Position numbers and translations under genes: made by a program. A model generated the notes under the pieces. That model searched no databases. It was not told the DNA's origin and saw only the letters and a program-made list of their open reading frames with translations. Of a stretch of 64,000 nucleotides of DNA, positions 11,175-63,740 are shown piece after piece (positions within the stretch are counted from its first letter, which is position 1; each line of letters begins with the position of its first letter). The stretch is from an uncultured Fretibacterium sp. (GTDB lineage Bacteria > Synergistota > Synergistia > Synergistales > Aminobacteriaceae), in NCBI GenBank assembly GCA_946183145.1, contig CAMGZM010000007.1:33412-97411 (forward strand), given 5' to 3'.

Positions 11175-11558
11175 TTACGCGATAACCATCAATACATCGC
11201 CGGTGTTCACGGTGTCTCCGCTCTTGACGGGAATCTGAACAACTTTTCCCGTTGCGCTGGCAAAAACTTCATTCTCCATCTTCATGGCCTCAAGCAAAAG
11301 CACTAAATCTCCCTCGTTCACCGAGTCGCCAACATTGACTTTCACGTTGAGGATTTTTCCGGGCATCGGTGCTGTTACCTGTGAGCCTTCTGCAGGTGCT
11401 GCCGGGGCTGCTGCGGGCGTGGGTGCTGCGGGTGCTGCAGGTGCTGAAGGTGCCGAGGCTGCGGCGGGCATTGCGGGCATTGCTGCTCCTGCTCCGAGAC
11501 TCTCTACTTCTACGGTGTACGCTGTTCCGTCTACTACTACTCTGTATTTATTGCTCAC
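11175..11558 (-). CDS. biotin carboxyl-carrier subunit of a Na+-translocating decarboxylase / carboxyltransferase complex
   Basis: 127 aa. Ala/Pro linker followed by the biotinyl motif EAMKMENE. Confidence 0.8.
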   Translation of the reverse strand: MSNKYRVVVDGTAYTVEVESLGAGAAMPAMPAAASAPSAPAAPAAPTPAAAPAAPAEGSQVTAPMPGKILNVKVNVGDSVNEGDLVLLLEAMKMENEVFASATGKVVQIPVKSGDTVNTGDVLMVIA

Positions 11559-15752: not shown

Positions 15753-17429
15753 ATGCCGAGAAAAGCAAAATCACAGGAAGAATTATCACAGGAACAATCA
15801 CAGGAAACGCCGAAAAGAAAACGTACAGTAACAAGAAAAGCAACCGTGCGAAGAAAGAAGGAAGACATGACAGAGGAATTATTCCCCAGTCCTGAATTAA
15901 CCCCTGAAGAACTCACAGAAGAAGTGCGAGAAATACAAGAAGAATCTCATGACGAACCGCCGTTTGAAGCTCCTGAAGACTTTATGCCGGAAGAATCAGC
16001 AGAGATTCCTTACGAGGATTTAGAGCCGTCAGAACCTGAGCCGCAAGAGTCTGAGCAGGAGCCGCAAGAGACGGAGCAGGAGCCGCAAGAGACGGAGCAG
16101 GAGACAGAAGATTTTGACGCGCCCCAGCACGAATTTACACGCACAAGGGGAAGAAGGCAGCTTATTCAGCACCCGAAACCGAAATACACATATGCTATGC
16201 TGTCGTCAAAAAATCTCGCTGACCTCAAAAAGCTCGCAAAGGAAATCAACATCAACATACCCGTATCAATCCGCAAAGATGACCTGATAATCTTAATCCT
16301 GAAAACGCAGGCCGAAAGCATGAATTACCGTTTCGGAGGAGGAACGCTTGAGATATTGCCGGAAAATTTCGGGTTCTTGCGCCCTAAAGGAATGCTGCCG
16401 ACAGACAGCGATGTATATTTGTCGTCCTCGCAGATTCGGAGATTCGGACTCAGGAACGGCGATGTGATTTGGGGACTGATACGCCCGCCGCGGGATCAGG
16501 AGCATTACGAGGCGTTATTGCGTGTTGAGACTGTGAATTTCTCTGACCCTGAACACTCACGGAAGCGTCCCATGTTCGCGCAGTTGACTCCGATTTTCCC
16601 CGATCACCGTTTGAGCCTCGAATATGATCCTTCTGACCTCGCGACAAGACTCGTTGACATGTTCGCCCCGATTGGACTCGGACAAAGGGCATTAATCGTA
16701 TCACCCCCGAAAGCCGGAAAAACTACACTCCTCAAGCGTATAGCCTCTGCGATAACTGCAAATTCTCCTGATGTCATACTCATGGCGCTTTTGATTGACG
16801 AACGCCCCGAAGAGGTTACGGACTTTTCACGCTCAATTGACGGTGAAGTTATTGCGTCAACTTTTGACCGCCCGGCCGATGAACATATACGTGTTGCGAA
16901 TCTTGCGCTTGAGAAGGCGAAAAGGCTCGTCGAGGCAAAACGTGATGTTGTGATTCTTCTTGACAGTATAACGAGATTAGCGCGTGCTTCAAACCTTACT
17001 GTGCCGCCGTCAGGGAGGACTCTTTCAGGCGGTCTTGATCCTTCAGGCTTGTATTTCCCCAAGAGATTTTTCGGAGCTGCACGGAATTTCGAGGAAGGCG
17101 GGAGCTTGACGATAATCGGAACGGCGTTGACTGATACAGGCTCGCGAATGGATGACGTAATCTATGAAGAGTTCAAAGGCACGGGGAATATGGAGCTTCA
17201 TTTGTCGCGTAAACTTTCGGAGCAGAGAATTTTCCCGGCAATCGACATAACGAAATCAGGAACACGGCGCGAAGAGTTATTGATACCTGATGACGAACTC
17301 AAACGCTTATGGATTTTGCGCAAAAGAATCGCGGGAGTCGATGAGGCTGGAGCATTGAATCTCATCATGGACAAACTGCGCCAGACAGATAACAACAGCG
17401 AGTTTCTTAACTCAATAAAGCTGCAATAA
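15753..17429 (+). CDS. rho: transcription termination factor Rho with a ~148-aa charged N-terminal extension
   Basis: The C-terminal ~410 aa carry Rho_N, cold-shock-like and RecA-type domains (PPKAGKTTLL, DSITRLARA). Start placed at ATG 15753 after AAGGAAAA. Confidence 0.9.
   Translation: MPRKAKSQEELSQEQSQETPKRKRTVTRKATVRRKKEDMTEELFPSPELTPEELTEEVREIQEESHDEPPFEAPEDFMPEESAEIPYEDLEPSEPEPQESEQEPQETEQEPQETEQETEDFDAPQHEFTRTRGRRQLIQHPKPKYTYAMLSSKNLADLKKLAKEININIPVSIRKDDLIILILKTQAESMNYRFGGGTLEILPENFGFLRPKGMLPTDSDVYLSSSQIRRFGLRNGDVIWGLIRPPRDQEHYEALLRVETVNFSDPEHSRKRPMFAQLTPIFPDHRLSLEYDPSDLATRLVDMFAPIGLGQRALIVSPPKAGKTTLLKRIASAITANSPDVILMALLIDERPEEVTDFSRSIDGEVIASTFDRPADEHIRVANLALEKAKRLVEAKRDVVILLDSITRLARASNLTVPPSGRTLSGGLDPSGLYFPKRFFGAARNFEEGGSLTIIGTALTDTGSRMDDVIYEEFKGTGNMELHLSRKLSEQRIFPAIDITKSGTRREELLIPDDELKRLWILRKRIAGVDEAGALNLIMDKLRQTDNNSEFLNSIKLQ
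16038..16100 (+). repeat. in-frame 21-nt tandem repeat x3 (EPQE[S/T]EQ) within the rho extension
   Basis: gagccgcaagagWCKgagcag repeated three times back to back. Confidence 0.9.
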
Positions 17430-23837: not shown

Positions 23838-25382
23838 ATGATGAAATTCCTGCGCACGCAAATGAAATGGATAATGGCAATAATTGTTGTGGCATTCCTG
23901 CTTTCTACGTTCTTGATGTATGAAGGCAGAGGCACAAGAAGGACTCCAGGCCGCAACCCTGACGGAACAATGACGGATTACGAGGTGGCGCAGATAAACG
24001 GACGCTCGTTAATGCGCTCGGAGCTTGAGCAGAGACTCCGCAATTATCTCAGCCAGTACAGCACAAGAAGTATGGCATCTATCGACATGCCGGCAATATA
24101 CAGATCAGTGCTTGACCAGGCAATATTAGAGTCGCAGTTGGCGAAAGAAGTAGAAGACAAGGGAATACGTGTAAGCGATGCAGAGGCAGAAATAGCGATG
24201 AAGAATTACGCTGATACATATTTCCCGACAAGAGAGGCATTCTATCAGGTGCTGGCAAATTCAGGGATAAAAGTTGACGACTACAAGAAGAGTCTAGCGC
24301 GTCAGATGGCATCAGAGAGATTAATACGTGATGCAGTAGGGGAAGTAACAATCAGCGACGACAAAGTTTCAGAGTTCTACGACACAATGAAGGCGATACT
24401 TTACTCACAGCCGGAAGGATTCATGGTACACATGGCCGATTTCGGGACGAGTGCGGACGCAGAATATTTCCGCGCAGAAATCGCAGGGGGCGCAAGCTGG
24501 GACGTATTAGCATCGGGCGAATTAGCCTCACATGACGTAATCAACATCACAAAATCACCCGTGAGACTCCCTGCCAGCACATTTAGATCTGGAATACTGA
24601 GCGTGCTTGCTTCTGTTGACGTGGGAACGGTGAGTCCAGTTTTCGCGGTCTCAAGCAAGGATTACGGAGTCGCGCTGAAAGTCTCACATGTTGACGCGGG
24701 AAATATTCCTTATGATGAAGTGAGCGGTGATATTCGCACACTTTTGACACAGCAGGAGGAACGGAGCAGATTAACGGCCTATGAAGAATCATTACGCAGC
24801 AAAGCAAATGTAGTGATTAACGACAATGAATTATTCGCAAGCCCTGTTGTTTCAGGGGACAATACGCAGTCAGCAGACATTCTCCCGATAATGACTCTTG
24901 ATGATGCCAGCAAAGACGAATCAGCCGAGACTCCCGCAACTGTAGCAAGTGCTGACGAACCCGCAGAGACTTCCGCACCTGTAACGAGCGTTGACGAGAA
25001 CCCCGCAGAGACTCCCACTCCTGTAGCAAGCGTTGACGAAAAGCCCGCAGAGACTCCCGCAACTGTAACAAGCGTTGACGTGAAACTCACCGAGACTCCC
25101 GCGCCCGTAGCAAGTGCTGACGAAAAGCCCGCAGAGACTCCCGCAACTGTAACAAGCGTTGACGTGAAACTCACCGAGACTCCCGCGCCCGTAGCAAGTG
25201 CTGACGTGAAACCCTCAGAGACTCCCGAATCTGTAGCAAGCGTTGACGAAAAACCCGCAGAGACTCCCGAACCCGTCGCAAGTACTGACGTAATCACCGA
25301 GACTCCCGCAACCGAATCAGCCGACGCAGTAACAGAAGCAAAACCCGAAGTATCACAGGATATTTCAGCCGACAAAGAATAG
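23838..25382 (+). CDS. PpiD/SurA-like periplasmic chaperone with N-terminal anchor and repetitive acidic C-terminal tail
   Basis: 514 aa. N-terminal TM helix, SurA_N-like region, then a ~150-aa tail of 14-aa repeats. Confidence 0.6.
   Translation: MMKFLRTQMKWIMAIIVVAFLLSTFLMYEGRGTRRTPGRNPDGTMTDYEVAQINGRSLMRSELEQRLRNYLSQYSTRSMASIDMPAIYRSVLDQAILESQLAKEVEDKGIRVSDAEAEIAMKNYADTYFPTREAFYQVLANSGIKVDDYKKSLARQMASERLIRDAVGEVTISDDKVSEFYDTMKAILYSQPEGFMVHMADFGTSADAEYFRAEIAGGASWDVLASGELASHDVINITKSPVRLPASTFRSGILSVLASVDVGTVSPVFAVSSKDYGVALKVSHVDAGNIPYDEVSGDIRTLLTQQEERSRLTAYEESLRSKANVVINDNELFASPVVSGDNTQSADILPIMTLDDASKDESAETPATVASADEPAETSAPVTSVDENPAETPTPVASVDEKPAETPATVTSVDVKLTETPAPVASADEKPAETPATVTSVDVKLTETPAPVASADVKPSETPESVASVDEKPAETPEPVASTDVITETPATESADAVTEAKPEVSQDISADKE
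24924..25322 (+). repeat. in-frame 42-nt (14-aa) tandem repeats, about 9 units, including a perfect ~84-bp duplication
   Basis: Units of the type AETPATV(A/T)S(V/A)DEKP. The segment starting at 25050 is repeated exactly from 25134 (period 84). Confidence 0.9.
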
Positions 25383-29383: not shown

Positions 29384-29422
29384 GTTGTTGCGTATCACAA
29401 TGCGTAATTATATCCCCAACGC

Positions 29423-29686
29423 TTATTTTGTCAAGATTGCCTCTTCGAGTTTTGCACGTTCTTCACGTTCGGCCTGTACTCTGAGATTGTGCGCGCGCAT
29501 TGCGTCAAAGTGAGATTTTCCCCGCACAAAGTGTGAGAAGTCTGTTACTTCCGGTATGTCGGACGTGTCTGGCTCTCCGAACAGCTTTCTTTTCTCGTCC
29601 ATGCGCCTCAGAAAGTCCCTGCGTATTGCTTCGCGTTCTTCAGGGTCTACCACTGCCGCAAGTATGTCATGCAAGCCCATAAGCAT
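29423..29686 (-). CDS. putative BrnA-position antitoxin
   Basis: 87 aa, directly downstream of and overlapping brnT by 20 nt, matching the toxin-first brnTA order. The sequence itself was not recognised. Confidence 0.45.
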   Translation of the reverse strand: MLMGLHDILAAVVDPEEREAIRRDFLRRMDEKRKLFGEPDTSDIPEVTDFSHFVRGKSHFDAMRAHNLRVQAEREERAKLEEAILTK

Positions 29687-37495: not shown

Positions 37496-37542
37496 GAATA
37501 TTCCTCCCGGTGTGAAAAGATTTTCAGGGTAAGTATAGATTT

Positions 37543-37627
37543 GACTCCCTGCGGCAGAATTATCTGCTTCAGGTTCAAAGGGTCGGTGAAAAAAATCACC
37601 CTCTCAGCAAATATAAGCTCCCCTGAA
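37543..37627 (-). promoter_or_regulatory. TPP (THI-box) riboswitch
   Basis: Minus-strand sense reads ...CAGGGGAGC..GCTGAGAGGGTG...CACCGACCCTTTGAACCTGAAGCAGATAATTCTGCCGCAGGGAGTC. It contains the CUGAGA and ACCUGA..GAUAAU..GC..AGGGA signatures. Confidence 0.85.
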
Positions 37628-37707
37628 TGTTAATCATATATTATACGCTGTAAGTAATTTATGTTAAAATTCGGTCAGTAAAAATTCTTTCAAAGGGGTA
37701 ATGTGTA

Positions 37708-39999
37708 ATGAAAAAATTTAGCGCAACAGTTTATCTTTTCGCACTTGCATTGTTGGTGTTCGCAATGTCAGGATGCGGAGGTAGCGGCGGCACTATCAGC
37801 GTCAACAATCAGACTCAGACTCAATCATCGCAGAGCAGGAGAATGATAATCTCATCGCCAGCACTCACGAGGGGAGAAACGTACCGCCTTTATCGCGGGA
37901 ACACTGTCGGCGTAGCAGGAACAACAGCGAAATATTACGCGGCTCCTATATCAAGCAACAGCGAAAATATCGTTATGAACCTCGAATACGCAAACGCAGT
38001 GAATGAGGATCTTCCGTTCATCATCACAGACTCAGACGGCGTAAACGTGCTTTTCTCGTACAATCCCAAAGGCACAACAGAAACAGACACTACGACAGCT
38101 TACGGGAGCGTAATACGCAACGGGGGAGCATCACAGCAGCTCAGGTACACGAACTTGAATCTTTCAGCGTCATCAATAGAGCTTGACGACACGGACGCAA
38201 TAGACATCGTGTTAAGCTCAAACGGAACAGCAACAGCAGGAGGCTCAACAGTGCCGAGCTACGAATACATTTGGCACGCAGACCCCCAGCACCCCGCAGA
38301 ATATTGGACTCTCAGCGGTGATTCAACGGAGCTTGACTCAGACGCATACGAGGCCGCAATAGAGTCAGCCGGAACAGTAAACGGAGTCTACATCGCGCAT
38401 GATGTCCGCTACACGTCAAACACTCTCGACTTCAGCACGTCAAAGACAGCAAAGAAAGACGAAGACACAGAATATGTTGTGTATTACGATTTCACGTCAT
38501 CAGCGGTCAGAGAAGGACTCGCGGCAAATCTCGCAAAGTATAATCTTGGGAGCGCATACAGCACAGATCAATACATTTTCGCGACTCTCCCAATGAGCAA
38601 TGGCGGTATGCCCGGAGGCGGAACAATGCCCGGAAGTGGAGATTTTCCCGGCGGCGGAACAATGCCCAGCGGAGACAGGCCGACTCCCGGAAATGATACG
38701 AGACTCCCCGTCATAACGACTTCAGTAAACGCGGCGGACTCAACTGCAAGCAACATCGCGACATTCTCGACAATGACTCATTCAGCGTCAGAAGCATACG
38801 CGAATCCCGTGCTTCACATCACAGAACCCGGAACATACAGACTTTCAGGGACATGGAACGGGCAAATCTGGGTAGAAGTCGGCGCAAAATCACAGCATCA
38901 GGTTGCATTGATCCTTAACGGCGTTACGGTTACTTGCGACGTAGCTCCCGCGCTCGTGTTCTACAAAATCTACAAATGGGCGGAAGATAACGGCTATGAC
39001 TCTCAGTCAGTGCTTGCGGCTAATGACTTGTGGAAGAATATCGGCGACAAAATGCTGAGTACAGACGGGTATTATGACGTTGGCGCGATTGTTGAAATTG
39101 CTGACGGAACAACTAACACATTCACAGGCGCAAACACGTACAGGATTCTTGAGTTATGCCCGAAACTTGACGATGACGACAAACCGAAATACACAGGCTC
39201 AGGAATCGGAACGGACATTAGCGAGCAGGAGAAAATGTACAAGTTTGATGCCGCTTTCCAGTCAAGGCGCACGATAGTTATCGGCGGAGGCTCTGAAGGA
39301 ACAGGCAAGCTCAATATAACATCAAGCACGTATGAAGGTCTCGGCTCAGAAATGCACATGCTTGTAACAGGCGGAAATATCACCGTAACAGCTCCCGATG
39401 ACGCAATCAACGTTAATGAAGATTATGTTTCAGTCTTCCAGATGGACGAAGGAACAATGACAATCTCATCAACGAATGCTGACGGAATAGACTCGAATGG
39501 CTGGGTATCAATCAACGGCGGAACACTCAACATCACAGCAGGCACGGCCAGCACAGGCGCGGCAGGCGAGGCAGGAATTGACGCGGAAAATGACGTGTAC
39601 ATTTCCAGCAACGCTACGTACAACTGGACAGCAGCAGGCACAAGCGGCGGCGGTGAACAGGCTCCCAGCGGCGGCGGCACTACAAGCGGTGATCAGAGCG
39701 GCACAAGCACAGGTACAGGCACAAGCACGGGTACAGGCACAGGCACAAGTACAGGCACCGATACAGGTACAGGCACGGGCACAGGTACAGGCACAGGCAC
39801 CGATACAGGCACAACAACGGTTACGCTTCCTGTAACGCAGACGGTGATGACTCTCAATGACGGCACAGTGTTCACGCTTTTCCCGAATGACAGCACTGTT
39901 GAAACTGACACTGAAGGCACGAGGAATATTCCTTCAAGCGGAAACACATTCCAGATTGTTCACAGGGTCAATGATTTCGCGGGACTGACTACGAACTAG
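37708..39999 (+). CDS. large lipoprotein with carbohydrate-binding beta-helix (Cthe_2159-like) core and Gly/Thr linker
   Basis: 763 aa. Lipobox LLVFAMSGCGG. The central ...HITEPGTYRLSGTWNGQIWVEVG...LNGVTV... resembles Cthe_2159-family proteins. Confidence 0.6.
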   Translation: MKKFSATVYLFALALLVFAMSGCGGSGGTISVNNQTQTQSSQSRRMIISSPALTRGETYRLYRGNTVGVAGTTAKYYAAPISSNSENIVMNLEYANAVNEDLPFIITDSDGVNVLFSYNPKGTTETDTTTAYGSVIRNGGASQQLRYTNLNLSASSIELDDTDAIDIVLSSNGTATAGGSTVPSYEYIWHADPQHPAEYWTLSGDSTELDSDAYEAAIESAGTVNGVYIAHDVRYTSNTLDFSTSKTAKKDEDTEYVVYYDFTSSAVREGLAANLAKYNLGSAYSTDQYIFATLPMSNGGMPGGGTMPGSGDFPGGGTMPSGDRPTPGNDTRLPVITTSVNAADSTASNIATFSTMTHSASEAYANPVLHITEPGTYRLSGTWNGQIWVEVGAKSQHQVALILNGVTVTCDVAPALVFYKIYKWAEDNGYDSQSVLAANDLWKNIGDKMLSTDGYYDVGAIVEIADGTTNTFTGANTYRILELCPKLDDDDKPKYTGSGIGTDISEQEKMYKFDAAFQSRRTIVIGGGSEGTGKLNITSSTYEGLGSEMHMLVTGGNITVTAPDDAINVNEDYVSVFQMDEGTMTISSTNADGIDSNGWVSINGGTLNITAGTASTGAAGEAGIDAENDVYISSNATYNWTAAGTSGGGEQAPSGGGTTSGDQSGTSTGTGTSTGTGTGTSTGTDTGTGTGTGTGTGTDTGTTTVTLPVTQTVMTLNDGTVFTLFPNDSTVETDTEGTRNIPSSGNTFQIVHRVNDFAGLTTN
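39700..39818 (+). repeat. in-frame (GGYACR)n hexanucleotide repeat encoding a (GT)n/(GTS) linker
   Basis: ggcaca/ggtaca units repeated about 19 times, translating to GTSTGTGTSTGTGTGTSTGTDTGTGTGTGTGTGTDTGTTT. Confidence 0.9.
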
Positions 40000-46690: not shown

Positions 46691-46732
46691 GTATGCTATA
46701 ATTTCTACATTTATATCCCAACAAAGAAAGGG

Positions 46733-46760
46733 TTGACATTCATGCAAAGCCGTGTAAAAT
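46733..46760 (+). promoter_or_regulatory. near-consensus sigma70 promoter upstream of the gtrB-like gene
   Basis: TTGACA (46733-46738), a 16-nt spacer, then TAAAAT (46755-46760). A second extended -10 (TGcTATAAT) lies at 46694-46702. Confidence 0.5.
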
Positions 46761-46809
46761 CGGTTATCGGTTATCGGTTATCGGTTATCGGTTATCGGTT
46801 ATCGGTATC
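46761..46809 (+). repeat. heptanucleotide tandem repeat (CGGTTAT) x6 plus one degenerate unit
   Basis: cggttat repeated at 46761, 46768, 46775, 46782, 46789 and 46796, then cggtatc. Confidence 0.95.
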
Positions 46810-46856
46810 ACATGCTCTGATGTAGTTTCAAGTAATGTCTTCGTGTGGCGGATAAA

Positions 46857-47783
46857 ATGATCTCAATACTTTGTCCGTGCTACAACGAGGAAAAAGCCCT
46901 CCCGATATTCATTCAGCGAATCACAGAAACAATCAGCAAAATCCCGGAAGAGTTCGAGATTGTTTTTGTCAACGATGGAAGCACAGACTCGACTCTTGAT
47001 CTTCTCACGTCATATTCATCAAAAGATTCACGCGTAAAGGTTGTAGACTTCTCGCGCAATTTCGGAAAAGAAGCAGCACTTACAGCCGCGCTTGATTACG
47101 CTTCAGGAGACGCGGTTATACCGATTGACGCGGATCTTCAAGACCCCCCGGAGCTTATTGCGGAGATGATAGCGAAATGGCACGAGGGTTATGATGTCGT
47201 ATTAGCCCGCCGCGCTGACCGTTCATCTGATTCATGGCCGAAAAGATTTACCGCAAAGATGTTCTACAAAGTTCATAACGCAATCTCAAATCCTCATATC
47301 CCGGAAAATGTCGGCGACTTCAGGCTGATGGACCGCGCAGTGATTGAGGCATTGAAGCAGTGCAGGGAGTCTTACAGGTACATGAAGGGGCTTTTTGCGT
47401 GGGCGGGATTCAGAACTTTCACTCTTGATTACGCTAGGAGGCCGCGCACTGAAGGCACAACGAAATTCAACGGCTGGCGTTTGTGGAATGACGCTATCAA
47501 CTCTATAACATCATTCAGCATAGCACCATTAACAATATGGCTTTATGTCGGAACGTTAATATTATCGCTCGCATTCATGTACCTTGCGTTTATTTTCCTT
47601 AGGCAGCTTATTACAGCCCAGACCGCTCCAGGTTATGCGTCAATTGTCTGCATGATACTTTTTTTCGGAGGGCTCAATCTTATCGGAATAGGACTACTCG
47701 GTCAGTATTTGGGACGTACATATATAGAGAGCAAGCAGAGACCTGTATATATTGTGAGAAAGGTTTACGGTGATACAAAATGA
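46857..47783 (+). CDS. GT2 polyprenyl-phosphate glycosyltransferase (GtrB/ArnC-like)
   Basis: MISILCPCYNEE..., DGSTD, ID(A)DLQDPPE, and two C-terminal TM helices. ATG 46857 preferred over the track's GTG 46845. Confidence 0.85.
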   Translation: MISILCPCYNEEKALPIFIQRITETISKIPEEFEIVFVNDGSTDSTLDLLTSYSSKDSRVKVVDFSRNFGKEAALTAALDYASGDAVIPIDADLQDPPELIAEMIAKWHEGYDVVLARRADRSSDSWPKRFTAKMFYKVHNAISNPHIPENVGDFRLMDRAVIEALKQCRESYRYMKGLFAWAGFRTFTLDYARRPRTEGTTKFNGWRLWNDAINSITSFSIAPLTIWLYVGTLILSLAFMYLAFIFLRQLITAQTAPGYASIVCMILFFGGLNLIGIGLLGQYLGRTYIESKQRPVYIVRKVYGDTK

Positions 47784-49444
47784 AACACAGCAAAAGCATA
47801 TTTATTCTTTCAGCAATAATTATCGCGCTGTTCTGCGTTCTCGGACTTTTCAGCAGACCATACCCGGCAGATGATTTCGGTTTCTATAATGCTGTAGCAG
47901 AAGAAGGTTTCATTCAGGCTCAAATCTTAATGTATACTCAATGGGCAGGAAGAATTTTCAACACATTTCTAGTCTATTCGGCAGCACTTTTCCCGCTCGA
48001 GAAAGTTCAGCCGTTCATAGCGTTATTTGACTCTGTAATATATACGCTTGCTTGTTTGGTTCTTGTCTCTGTTATTTTCCCGGCATTGACTCTTTTCGCA
48101 AAATTATCGCTCTCACTCATGGTATGTGCATTGACCCTCTGCTTCACGTACTCGCTTAATGAGACATTCTACTGGCTTGCTGGCGGAATGACATACTTTG
48201 TTGCACAAGTTATGATTGTTCTTGCGCTGGCTCTCGCAATAAAAGCATACAGGGGGTCGCGTTCATCGTTCATTCTCTGCATGATTGTTTTGTTCCTGAA
48301 TGCTACGAATCTTGAACAGCCCTGCGTGTTTCAGGGAGTAATCGCTTTTGCGGCCATGATATATTTCTTTGCACGCGTGAACAAGAGAGCCGCTTTAATG
48401 TCCGGGGCATACTGGCTCGTCTCAGTCGCGGGGTTCTGCATCATGTATTTCGCTCCCGGCACCGCCGTAAGAATGGGTGCAGGCACTCTCAAATCTCCGT
48501 CAGTATTTGCTATGATACGTAACGGACTCATTTTGGCTTTCTCAATGGGAGTCATGAATATATTTCAGTTCTTCTTCAAGCCTCTGACTTATACCATGCT
48601 GTTATTCCTTCCGGCAATCGCTGAGAAAATCCCTCCTGCTGACGAAAAATTATCCCGCAGACTCAGAGCGTGGCACATTATAGCGGCAGTGTCAGCTGTC
48701 AGCATGTCGATGCAGTTTATTGTAGGCGCGGTAATGTACAGAGGACTTCCTCCAAGAGGTGTGAGCCTGTCTTTATGGCTGATGTATTTCACGTGGAATA
48801 CGTTATTGATATTCTTTTACAGGGGCAGACTAATTCATTCTAAAGGATTCAAAAATTTCTGTGCTAAGTTCAGGTGGCCGGTGCTGATTTTGTCCGTTCT
48901 TGTCAGCGCAAACTTCAGGGATTGCGTGAACAATCTGCGAATCGCTCCAGAATATGCAGCCGAATATGACTCAATCACCGAATCAATGAAGGCTCAAAGC
49001 AGAAGAGGCGAAAAAATTCTCACAGCCCCGCGAATCAAGGCAAGGCCGAATTTGCTGTACTGGAATATAGAATACATGTCAGCACACGAGAACATTGCAA
49101 AATATTACGGAGGAGAAAAATTTTACATCATTCCCGAAGAGCTTTCACAAAATCCGGAGGCCGTGAAAAAATTAACATCAGGAAATCTTGAGCCTTTTGC
49201 TGAACTAGCAGATAAAGGAGACACAGAAGCAGCCAGAATTATAGGGAACTACAGAGATCCCAGAAATAACGCACGAAACCCGGCAGCTTGGAATCCTGAA
49301 GAGGCAGAAAAATATTACAGGATAGGTGCGGAGAATGGAAATGCCTTTTGTATGAGGCCGCTTGCGAGAATGGTATACACTAAGAATCTTCCCGAAGGTA
49401 TTTATTGGCTTGTTAAGGCACATATAAAGTGGTTCAGATTATAG
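47780..49444 (+). CDS. polytopic membrane protein (GtrC-position, possible GT-C-like) with C-terminal Sel1-like repeat
   Basis: 554 aa, >10 TM helices. The C-terminal soluble tail has AEKYYRIGAENGNAFCM (Sel1-like). 4-nt overlap with the GT2 gene. Confidence 0.5.
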   Translation: MKHSKSIFILSAIIIALFCVLGLFSRPYPADDFGFYNAVAEEGFIQAQILMYTQWAGRIFNTFLVYSAALFPLEKVQPFIALFDSVIYTLACLVLVSVIFPALTLFAKLSLSLMVCALTLCFTYSLNETFYWLAGGMTYFVAQVMIVLALALAIKAYRGSRSSFILCMIVLFLNATNLEQPCVFQGVIAFAAMIYFFARVNKRAALMSGAYWLVSVAGFCIMYFAPGTAVRMGAGTLKSPSVFAMIRNGLILAFSMGVMNIFQFFFKPLTYTMLLFLPAIAEKIPPADEKLSRRLRAWHIIAAVSAVSMSMQFIVGAVMYRGLPPRGVSLSLWLMYFTWNTLLIFFYRGRLIHSKGFKNFCAKFRWPVLILSVLVSANFRDCVNNLRIAPEYAAEYDSITESMKAQSRRGEKILTAPRIKARPNLLYWNIEYMSAHENIAKYYGGEKFYIIPEELSQNPEAVKKLTSGNLEPFAELADKGDTEAARIIGNYRDPRNNARNPAAWNPEEAEKYYRIGAENGNAFCMRPLARMVYTKNLPEGIYWLVKAHIKWFRL

Positions 49445-50877: not shown

Positions 50878-50910
50878 CCCCTCTTGGTGAAAATGCCGGG
50901 AGGGGTTTTT
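50878..50910. terminator. bidirectional terminator between convergent ybjN-like and acyltransferase genes
   Basis: CCCCTC (50878-50883) pairs with GAGGGG (50900-50905), flanked by A5 and T5. Confidence 0.65.
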
Positions 50911-50919
50911 CTTATGCGC

Positions 50920-52025
50920 TTATTTCCGCATTAACTTGCCGGGATAAAATATGTATTCGATCCATCGCAGGCACTTCACATTTTTGTACAGCCATATTAC
51001 AGCAATAGGAAGCAATACCCCCGCTGAACATACAATCAGAAAAGCCAATGCCGGGCTACTTGAAACATACGCAGGCTGATAACGGCAGATAATATTCACC
51101 ATTACAAGCACATAATGATGAAGAGTAAATATTACCATGCTGTAAACTCCGCAGGTAACGAGTAAAGAGTTTCCTACATTCCAAGCGTAAAACATAATAA
51201 ACATTGCGAGGCTCGTAAATGTTGCAGCAGCAGCCACAGTGAAAACATTTCTCTGCCCGTAAAAGTATGACACTGAGAAAAATATCATTCCCGCAAGAAG
51301 AAATATTATTCCGTATAACGCTTTAGGATGACATGCTGACGTTACAATATTCTCGCGCCTTATGACAAAGCCTGCATAAAAATAAAGGCCGTAATACAGA
51401 AATACAGGGGCATTGTCCCAGAACAGCGGAGCATTCTCCAAAAGCAGTTGATAGGAAAAAAACGTGATTATCCATAGCAATGCCTGAAAATATCTGCTGA
51501 TATTCAAGTGTTCAAGCATAATGTGAATGACTTTGACGAAGAATAAAGCACTGAGAAACCAGCAATGATTGAAGCCGTAAAACGGGATTTTGAACAGTCT
51601 GCTTAATGACACATGATCAAAAATATTTGCACTGCCTAAATTGAGATTCTGCAAAATAAACTTTGGAAGCCACATTGCCAGAGAAAAGTAAATACACGGC
51701 AGGTATAAATCAACAACACACTTCTTCAGGCGAAAAAGTGTACCGGGAACTTTGCTCTTTATGCCTTCAGCGTACCCCGCTATTATAAACATAAACGGCA
51801 TATGAAAACTGTATATATACCCGTTAATCATGGCACTTACTTTTAACTCCAGTCCATAATCCGCTAATCTCATAATTACATGGCCGATTACAACAAGAAT
51901 TATCGCAAGCCCTCTCAGCGAATCAAGGACAGAATCCCGCCCATCGCCCTGAAGCCCTGAAGCCCTGAAGCCCTGAAGCCCTGAAGCCCTGAAGCCCTGA
52001 AGCCATTATGAGCCGTTAAACTCAT
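50920..52025 (-). pseudogene. acyltransferase family 3 (O-acetylase-type) membrane protein, frame-disrupted by an 8-nt repeat tract (phase-OFF in this sequence)
   Basis: The body ORF 50920-51873 is AT3-like with ~10 TM helices. The same frame continues upstream as GDGRDSVLDSLRGLAIILVVIGHVI (canonical AT3 N-terminus) into the repeat. The only RBS-linked ATG (52025) is out of frame with 7 units. Confidence 0.75.
51947..52004 (-). repeat. octanucleotide tandem repeat (plus strand CCCTGAAG; gene strand CTTCAGGG) x7
   Basis: Seven perfect units at 51947-52002 plus a partial cc. Confidence 0.95.
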
Positions 52026-52074
52026 TTGTCAACCGTTCCTTTCATGAAATTTTGCTTATGATTTTAGCATATAT

Positions 52075-55427: not shown

Positions 55428-56173
55428 ATTATCACCCCGAAAAGCATAATCACTTCAGAGGCTTCAACGAACGCTCCGAGCAAATCGCCCGTTATGCCCC
55501 CGAAAATTTTTACGCATATTATCACGTGAATTGTTACGCACAAAATCATCATGGCCGGAATAATCTTTATGCTTACGACTGAGAGCAGCACGAACATCAT
55601 CAACAGTAAAATATTGTCGCGCTTGTTACGTGATGAGCCTAAAATCACCGCGAGGCCGTTTGATTTCGCAAATGGAAGATTATTGAGTATCATTGCCATT
55701 CCGAGCCGTGAATATACAGGTATAGTGAATAGTGTGAAGTGTGAAGTGTGAAGTGCAAAGAGTTCGGAGAATAATAACGTTTTGGCCATAAGGATTATCA
55801 CGCACGACATCACCGCAAAAGATCCCGCGTAAGTGTCGGATAAAATTTTGAGTCTCGTCTCCCTGTCCCTGTGCGAAAATATTGCGTCGCATGTGTCCAT
55901 TAAGCCGTCAAGGTGAAGCCCTCCCGTTAATGCGAGAGTCAGAATCATCATCATGAATCCGCGCAATAACAGCGAGAGTCCCGGCCATGAGAGAACACTC
56001 CACAACGCCGCCCATAACGCACCAAATATCACGCCGACAATCGGAAGCATTACGCAGAACCATCGCAGATTTTTGGGAGTCCATTCGGGAATCGGAGCAG
56101 GTATTATAGATATGAAGGATAACACTATGAGGAATGAATTTATTATCTTAAGCATAATGCTATACTCTATCAC
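55418..56173 (-). CDS. cobS: adenosylcobinamide-GDP ribazoletransferase (cobalamin synthase)
   Basis: 251 aa membrane protein with the ...GGLHLDGLMDTCDAIFS... motif. Confidence 0.85.
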   Translation of the reverse strand: MIEYSIMLKIINSFLIVLSFISIIPAPIPEWTPKNLRWFCVMLPIVGVIFGALWAALWSVLSWPGLSLLLRGFMMMILTLALTGGLHLDGLMDTCDAIFSHRDRETRLKILSDTYAGSFAVMSCVIILMAKTLLFSELFALHTSHFTLFTIPVYSRLGMAMILNNLPFAKSNGLAVILGSSRNKRDNILLLMMFVLLSVVSIKIIPAMMILCVTIHVIICVKIFGGITGDLLGAFVEASEVIMLFGVIICI

Positions 56174-63670: not shown

Positions 63671-63740
63671 AATTCCTCCTGTAAATGTTATTGTTACACC
63701 GAAAATTTTACAGCGTAAAAGTGTAATGTCAACTGTTACA

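Follow-up and report, generated by a model that had tools for sequence, protein, structure and literature searches.

A candidate translational phase switch: eight-nucleotide tandem repeats at the start of an Acyl_transf_3 gene in a Fretibacterium species

Why would a bacterium keep the body of a membrane acyltransferase gene open while seven perfect copies of an eight-nucleotide repeat hold that gene out of frame with its start codons? The question is raised by a 64-kb stretch of DNA (hereafter the window) from an uncultured Fretibacterium sp. of the Synergistota (contig CAMGZM010000007.1, positions 33,412 to 97,411). The gene concerned belongs to the Acyl_transf_3 (acyltransferase 3, or AT3) family, and its locus is described here in minus-strand coordinates of the window. 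A preliminary description, made from the letters of the window, had proposed that the repeat is a slipped-strand phase switch with the layout of a contingency locus. We find that the number of repeat units differs among relatives, and that in-frame (ON) and out-of-frame (OFF) alleles occur within the same lineages. On this evidence we consider it likely that the AT3 locus is a simple sequence repeat (SSR) contingency locus, which switches a stand-alone AT3 membrane O-acyltransferase at the level of translation.

Reading frames across the repeat tract

The minus strand at the locus reads AAAGGAACGGTTGACAAATGAGTTTAACGGCTCATAATGG(CTTCAGGG)7CGATGGGCGGGATTC..., and the seven perfect units (51947..52002) constitute a slippage-prone tract. 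Tandem Repeats Finder (TRF) delimits the same array as 51946-52004, with period 8, 7.4 copies, 100% matches and a score of 118. Perfect arrays of period 4-9 with at least four copies occur only twice in the 64 kb, here and as (ATCGGTT)6 at 46759-46800, and 200 first-order Markov simulations of the window produced none.

Two start codons precede the tract, each in a different frame. The first, ATG1 (52023..52025), is linked to the Shine-Dalgarno (SD)-like sequence AAAGGAA (52036..52042), whose equivalents in homologous cassettes are AAGGAG or AGGAGG, and it reads into the enzyme whenever n, the number of units, equals 0 mod 3 (0, 3, 6, 9, 12). The second, ATG2 (52004..52006), stands directly before the tract in the context CATA-ATG-G and is in frame when n equals 2 mod 3 (2, 5, 8, 11). 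The enzyme frame itself is closed immediately 5' of the tract by a TAA (52006..52008), and between this stop and Met-51873 it offers no ATG, GTG or TTG. Seven units place both ATGs out of frame, and thus the AT3 gene is OFF in the window. Translation from ATG1 then yields a product of 36 amino acids with the C-terminal end ...AMGGILSLIR, terminated by a TGA (51915..51917).

Most of what the preliminary description had stated about these frames agrees with the sequence and with TRF, namely that seven units separate the ribosome-binding-site-linked ATG at 52025 from the gene body, that translation from this ATG ends after about 36 codons, and that the body frame has no usable start upstream. Its further statement, that 6 or 9 units restore the ATG at 52025 to frame and 7 or 8 do not, also holds for that ATG, and seven units are OFF, but one amendment is needed. 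The second ATG (52006) lies in the third frame, so that alleles with 5, 8 or 11 units are potentially ON too. The window-type cassette probably has two ON frames, one for each ATG, and a single OFF frame at n = 1 mod 3.

What the tract withholds from translation is the beginning of the enzyme. Just past the repeat the body frame reads ...GDGRDSVLDSLRGLAIILVVIGHVIMRLADYG, within a segment that encodes the AT3 N-terminus and has no start codon of its own (DGRDSVLDSLRGLAIILVVIGHVI, 51874..51946). It is followed by an intact body open reading frame (ORF) of 317 amino acids, stop codon included (50920..51873). By itself, the 317-aa ORF matches Acyl_transf_3 (PF01757) with 56.3 bits against a gathering threshold of 31, and only over profile positions 36-325. 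The conceptual protein of a 6-unit allele reaches 83.3 bits and aligns over positions 4-325 of 326, its N-terminus included, which is the alignment that the preliminary description had anticipated for this translation.

The segment gained in this way also holds the R-X10-H motif RGLAIILVVIGH, residues 35-46 of the conceptual ON protein. It is encoded at 51915-51880 (Arg codon 51915-51913, His codon 51882-51880), upstream of Met-51873. In AT3 proteins, the R-X10-H motif of transmembrane helix 1 (TMH1) is reported to be absolutely conserved, with the corresponding R14 and H25 of OafB essential for activity (PMC9833829). The motif and the extended Pfam alignment bear out the proposal that the out-of-frame stretch is the AT3 N-terminus carrying the histidine of the first transmembrane helix. 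Because the motif is encoded upstream of Met-51873, the ORF that begins there cannot be the active enzyme, and a productive start must precede the tract, with translation crossing it. At the position of the cytoplasmic RXXR of TMH3 the protein has R-L-K-K (residues 96-99); in the subfamily alignment K99 is nearly invariant and R96 is not. The enzyme most likely acylates a surface glycan.

Unit numbers among relatives

The closest proteins all come from Synergistaceae metagenome-assembled genomes (MAGs) or metagenomes (goat, deer and reindeer rumen), together with Fretibacterium, and the relatives form an AT3 subfamily with the conserved C-terminus CLRWIEYIFYPGKL. Across these relatives the tract ranges from 1 to 12 units, and both ON and OFF states of the gene occur. 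The nearest relative (L001), with an AT3 body 99.5% identical and a 7-kb region about 95% identical to the window, carries CTTCAAGG followed by three perfect units, which makes four, and is OFF. Five units are found in L002 and L128 (ON via ATG2), eight in L014 (ON via ATG1), four in L015 (ON via ATG2) and one in L012 (OFF). One species recovered from several metagenomes (L003-L010) has two units or one and is OFF. In the P0022 lineage, the DNA of L126 and L127 has seven units and is OFF, and protein alleles of the same cluster have six and nine (ON).

Homologous proteins were also clustered at 90% identity or more, and the unit number was taken as implied by their N-termini. The P0002 cluster contains alleles of 5, 8 and 12 units, that of P0006 alleles of 5 and 12, that of P0022 alleles of 6 and 9, and that of P0011 alleles of 2 and 9. 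A 3-unit allele accompanies one with a degenerate unit in the P0003 cluster, and the P0025 cluster has 3 units. In the P0013 cluster, P0013 itself has five units read from ATG2 and P0082 has six read from ATG1, with identical bodies. Truncated, OFF-looking calls stand beside full-length ones in six of these seven clusters, that of P0013 being the exception.

Both start codons are represented among homologues. Proteins of the ATG1 type (P0008, P0048, P0063, P0076 and P0082) begin MS(L/F)(T/K)AHNG... or MKLTAHNG..., and those of the ATG2 type (P0002, P0004, P0006, P0011, P0013 and P0049) begin MASGLQG..., a position at which many homologues are called full-length. Homologues that are 36-54% identical share the repeat-encoded peptide, with differing unit numbers and either start codon; MASGLQGFRASGLQGDGRD, for example, has five units and starts at ATG2, and MSFKAHNGFRASGLQGDGRD has three and starts at ATG1. 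In cassettes of the MKND..IMASG type, found in some Synergistaceae, ATG1 and ATG2 share a frame and thus provide one ON phase.

Seven units against four in the nearest relative, two against one within a species, and six, seven and nine in the P0022 lineage are the kind of variation among related strains and MAGs for which the preliminary description had suggested looking. Combined with ON and OFF alleles in the same lineages, this polymorphism supports its contingency-locus reading. That description had also raised the possibility that the subfamily normally starts at Met-51873, which is not the case. Full-length homologues carry an RD..DSLRG...H segment and none starts at the position of Met-51873; even the one homologue that has no repeat (L016) starts directly at MKRDAVSDALRG.

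Several further observations concern the same loci. L122-L125, which belong to the P0006 lineage, have lost about 100 nt (at ~1440-1480) by deletion, and with them the promoter, the SD, both start codons and all but two units of the tract. This is a locked-off allele, present in at least four samples, and the 5-unit ON allele is kept elsewhere (L002, L128). Five contigs (L011, L136, L137, L141 and L142) start inside a tract, that of the AT3 gene in L011. Such contig starts suggest that assembly tends to fail at the tracts, which is what reads with conflicting unit numbers would cause. Finally, the AT3 body (50920-51946) is 99.5% identical to that of L001 and the surrounding 7 kb averages 95.3%; to judge by this difference, the gene or module may have been exchanged recently between lineages.

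Wider searches added little to this sample. Look-ups of the exact products of the NAGPA gene, the 317-aa ORF and a HAD hydrolase gene returned no record of further strains. A scan of JGI metagenomes for (CTTCAGGG)3 gave 103 loci, essentially all of them unrelated soil or lake arrays, with no Synergistaceae cassette among them, and a scan of viral contigs for a -10 element joined to the tract gave no match. Three of the JGI contigs (L023, L077 and L089), from an unrelated organism, have AGGAGG and an ATG followed by 6, 10 and 10 copies of CTTCAGGG at the start of an ORF. The octamer appears to have been recruited independently in that organism as a likely contingency tract.

A shared cassette with an embedded promoter-like element

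The tract is part of a compact arrangement that recurs in front of other genes. Upstream of the AT3 gene, and co-directional with it, lies a gene for a secreted NAGPA phosphodiester glycosidase. Six nucleotides past the NAGPA stop codon is an extended -10 promoter candidate, P1 (TGCTAAAAT, 52061..52069), from which an mRNA would hold the SD, ATG1 and ATG2. An element of the form TGnTAnn(A/C)T, its 5' end 36-40 nt upstream of TTGACA, is present in 11 of the 12 cassettes that our script listed, and P1 is likely the productive promoter. A second element, P2 (TTGACA-N16-CATAAT, 52005..52032), is a consensus sigma-70-like site. The -35 of P2 is placed between the SD and ATG1; the -10 shares bases with ATG2 and directly adjoins the tract.

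With an 11/12 match, P2 is the best site in an 11-kb scan jointly with the one before (ATCGGTT)6. Chance would give 0.04 exact matches to TTGACA-N16-YAWAAT in the window, which has four. Besides the two that precede the repeats, there are two on the minus strand, which lie 23 nt upstream of a six-tRNA operon (copy at 29407-29434, operon at 29383-28868) and just upstream of a gene with AGGAGG and ATG (63705-63732). Given these tRNA-operon and gene promoter positions, the pattern is the canonical (strong) promoter of the organism.

All the cassettes with repeats that we examined, which cover six unit types of 7-8 nt and two gene families, have a P2 element, but with differing spacer sequences. 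The spacer measures 16 nt in all AT3 cassettes and in two species with a cassette before a family 2 glycosyltransferase (GT2) gene, and 18 nt in the third (the GT2 cassette of the P0092 species). The tract begins 0-3 nt past the P2 -10, and the spacer is constant within each cassette whatever the unit number. Because the spacing between -35 and -10 is constant, the geometry of the promoter cannot be tuned by the number of units. AT3 genes that encode proteins only about 42% identical have almost the same 50 nt ahead of the tract, which points to constraint at the DNA level or to exchange of the module. In all, cassette and tract are kept before AT3 genes that are only 32-54% identical.

A sister cassette with the same order of parts lies 5 kb from the AT3 switch on the plus strand (46694..46860). 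It begins with its own P1 (TGCTATAAT, 46694-46702) and the SD AAAGGG, followed by P2 (TTGACA-N16-TAAAAT, 46733-46760), which holds a leader ATG (46742) within its spacer, and by the tract (ATCGGTT)6+ATCGGT (46759-46806), which lies in the SD-led leader ORF. The gene downstream encodes a GtrB-like polyisoprenyl-phosphate glycosyltransferase of the GT2 type (46857-47783, start codon at 46857; Pfam Glycos_transf_2, 125 bits). It is followed by a gene for a 554-aa GtrC-like GT_STM0557_N protein (47780-49444), the orthologous downstream gene carrying PF19528. The two genes form a putative glycan-glycosylation operon under the sister cassette, as far as their sequences tell; a gtrA-like flippase gene was not identified next to GT2 in the window.

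In orthologous GT2 cassettes, the 7-nt unit differs by species and its number varies. The flanks and the GT2 protein are identical, so this sample of unit numbers is unbiased. Arrays of (TCGGCTG) have 12, 11, 11, 9, 9, 8 and 8 units, those of (TCGGATG) have 4, 6 and 6, and an array of (ATCGGTT) has 4 against 6 in the window. Four contigs start inside the GT2 tract. Fusion of the tract to GT2 is blocked by a TAA in the GT2 frame (46833), and the leader ORF ends 24-39 nt upstream of GT2 or, at n = 1 mod 3, on a TGA that overlaps the GT2 start codon (ATGA). This three-frame leader layout is conserved in three species, and the window allele, with n = 6, is in an uncoupled frame. The layout makes translational coupling a candidate mechanism for phase variation of GT2, in which the frame of the enzyme itself would not be shifted. 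Pairing of the repeat with the GT2 SD region was considered and rejected, because the sequences, complementary by eye in one species (UCGGCU/GGCCGG), are not so in the window or the third species.

Two paralogous AT3 loci carry tracts of their own. In L126 (positions 2420-2560; ENA ERZ27256811, k141_1003814), two tandem AT3 genes each have one, the first with (CTTCAGGG)7 and OFF, the second with (GCAGACC)11 and in frame. Both tracts follow an SD and TTGAC-ATG, N16 and TATAAT, and by their sequences they are independent switches on adjacent paralogues. In a Fretibacterium sp. MAG (L017, CALGHA010000089.1, 2519-2570), an AT3 homologue that is 32% identical has (GTATCAG)3 at the equivalent position, following TTGACA-N16-CATAAT, and is out of frame.

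Could the constant part of the switch be the P2 promoter rather than the repeat? On this proposal P2 would be a dedicated cis-acting part of a portable cassette. The open complex of RNA polymerase, or initial transcription, would melt the first units and thereby stimulate slippage; alternatively, a non-productive promoter would compete with the productive upstream one. We regard this as rather unlikely. Nor does structure in the tract account for P2. No stable secondary structure was found, and a hairpin is ruled out as an explanation by a fold no better than those of shuffled sequences. A G-quadruplex adjoining a promoter would have a counterpart in the pilE G4 of Neisseria, and the G3N5 spacing on the non-template strand invites the comparison; as a general explanation it fails, since G-runs are absent from (GCAGACC)11, the tract of a paralogue.

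A different role for P2 is that of the real promoter, with the tract as a transcribed 5' leader whose unit number acts through leader length, leader structure or promoter-proximal events and not through frame. The quality of P2, the use of its exact pattern at tRNA-operon and gene promoter positions, its presence in all the examined cassettes with repeats, and the GT2 tract that lies outside the GT2 coding sequence all lend this idea some weight. For the AT3 gene, however, a leader of this kind would leave the enzyme with no start, because the frame past the tract lacks an ATG, GTG or TTG before Met-51873 and R-X10-H is encoded upstream of that codon. The SD and ATG1 are conserved upstream, as is an extended -10 at a fixed distance, and full-length alleles in frame with ATG1 or ATG2 are common. 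The repeat-free L016 keeps TTGAC-ATG and has no -10, and the tract has no stable structure through which a leader might act. We therefore judge regulation through the leader to be quite improbable.

The proposed switch and its place among known systems

According to the translational reading that we prefer, mRNA from P1, or read-through from the NAGPA gene, would carry the SD and two starts in different frames, followed by (CTTCAGGG)n. Slipped-strand mispairing during replication would gain or lose 8-nt units. At n = 0 mod 3, ATG1 would read the tract as a tolerated cytoplasmic tail, (GFRASGLQ)n, leading into the R-X10-H of TMH1 and the rest of the enzyme; at n = 2 mod 3, ATG2 would do likewise. 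At n = 1 mod 3, as with the seven units of the window, both starts would end after 27-36 codons and no active enzyme would be made. A population would then mix cells with modified and unmodified glycan.

Several points weigh against this account. Unit polymorphism is known between samples and strains and not within one population. The window (seven units) and its nearest relative (four) are both OFF; this may be a coincidence, with odds of about 1 in 3, or a sign that the lineage keeps the gene silent. Those alleles that were recovered via truncated protein calls form a sample biased towards OFF by this ascertainment. Between the window and L001 the AT3 gene has five differences (one synonymous, four non-synonymous), too few for a ratio of non-synonymous to synonymous substitution rates (dN/dS) or for a statement on purifying selection. 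No recognisable SD precedes ATG2 in the sequence. Finally, a transcript started at P2 would begin within the first unit and lack both ATGs, such that some transcription may yield no enzyme, and the conservation of P2 is left unexplained by a simple translational model.

The silence of both close relatives also raises the question of decay. If the gene were a pseudogene, or the assembly in error, then the seven units would be a fixed frameshift lesion or a mis-assembled repeat. The lineage of L122-L125 does have a truly dead allele, its promoter, SD and ATG region deleted, and repeats can be miscounted in short-read assemblies. Against this, neither OFF strain has a stop within the 342 codons of the body frame, and in-frame and out-of-frame alleles occur together in clusters of at least 90% identity. 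Conservation of cassette and tract before AT3 genes as divergent as those described above is equally hard to attribute to decay. The AT3 tracts, at 8-96 nt, are below typical read length, and their perfect, undecayed units argue for ongoing slippage and for selection to keep the tract. Decay or error is thus a very unlikely explanation.

Less probable still is that translation from Met-51873 gives a working enzyme of 317 aa, with nothing upstream of any relevance, even though this ORF lies above the Pfam gathering threshold (56 versus 31 bits) and many database homologues are annotated at ~280-326 aa. The 317-aa form lacks TMH1 with its essential R-X10-H, and the sequence before Met-51873 contains no SD. 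The short database entries start at varied internal Met or alternative codons and share clusters with full-length alleles, and on these grounds they are gene calls of OFF alleles. As for programmed frameshifting or transcriptional slippage that would restore the frame and express the 7-unit allele, repeats can in principle promote polymerase slippage, yet we found nothing specific in its favour, CTTCAGGG holds no slippery heptamer or homopolymer run and no stimulatory structure follows, and switching at the DNA level predicts just such a variety of unit numbers, in which both frames are represented, so that this last idea is scarcely credible.

A few other features of the window complete the description. 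A GC-rich hairpin with T-runs on both strands (50878..50905) lies between the AT3 gene and a convergent 163-aa ORF and is likely a bidirectional terminator. At 55731-55755, the perfect repeat (AGTGTGA)x3.6 lies within the CobS coding sequence (minus strand), with an overlapping promoter-like match of 10/12. As a switch tract it was rejected, because it is inside CobS and its counterpart in L001 is not perfect; most probably the repeat is plain coding sequence. Large ORFs contain long in-frame coding repeats at 24925-25312 (periods 42/84/126 nt), 39700-39813 (18 nt), 16038-16103 (21 nt) and 11390-11453 (9 nt), and may encode repetitive surface or linker proteins. A thiamine pyrophosphate (TPP) riboswitch (Rfam RF00059, 63.7 bits) is found at 37531-37634 on the minus strand.

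What the translational switch would mean for its host follows from its company. This rumen-type Synergistaceae lineage has at least two such switches within 6 kb, those of the AT3 gene and of the GtrB/GtrC-like operon, and relatives carry more. The implication is that surface glycans of a gut commensal vary stochastically and in combinations, with phage or host as the most plausible source of the pressure. The switch also accounts for the many truncated AT3 annotations in these MAGs and for the contigs that break at the tracts. It follows that phenotype cannot be predicted from finding the gene in a MAG.

SSR contingency loci are textbook features of a few host-adapted pathogens, among them Haemophilus, Neisseria, Campylobacter and Helicobacter, and in the literature that we searched there is no report of SSR phase variation in Synergistota. 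The closest counterpart is oafA of Haemophilus influenzae, an AT3 O-acetyltransferase gene of lipooligosaccharide whose phase variation is due to 5'-GCAA repeats (PMC10505976, PMC9558356). Both genes belong to the Acyl_transf_3 family, and in both a non-triplet SSR in the 5' part of the ORF sets the frame of a gene for surface-glycan acetylation. Unlike oafA, the system described here has units of 8 nt (7 nt in paralogues) in place of 4, concerns a stand-alone AT3 protein of about 350 aa in another phylum (Synergistota, rumen-type MAGs), and is known from sequence. Its tract is moreover set in a cassette that is itself conserved, and that contains two start codons as well as the consensus promoter-like element embedded among them.

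The two starts recall the CAAT tract of H. influenzae licA (lic1), where two of the three frames have a start codon, so that two repeat phases are ON and the third is OFF (PMC2212159). In the window-type cassette, ATG1 and ATG2 similarly cover two of the three frames. The gene product (a choline kinase in licA, an AT3 enzyme here) and the unit length differ, and some Synergistaceae cassettes, those of the MKND..IMASG type, have only one ON phase.

A pairing of gene functions like that of the window is seen in Salmonella, where phase variation of gtr and oafB is documented (PMC2909390, PMC9558356). As with gtrABC of Salmonella and phage P22 together with oafB, the window combines an AT3 gene and a GtrB-like GT2/GtrC-like module, each behind a hypervariable element. 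The Salmonella gtr switch, however, is an epigenetic Dam/OxyR promoter switch, in contrast to the SSRs of 7-8 nt found here. SSRs physically tied to a sigma-70-type promoter, as are those of the window, also occur in the promoter-located switches formed by the TA repeats of H. influenzae hif and by Neisseria opc and nadA. The present tracts differ from these in starting just downstream of the -10, with a spacer that is the same in all alleles of a cassette. The mechanism of the AT3 switch is in this sense already known, and what goes beyond the textbook examples is the use of 7-8-nt units, a portable cassette found family-wide that provides several independent switches for glycan-modifying genes, and a conserved consensus promoter fused to every tract.

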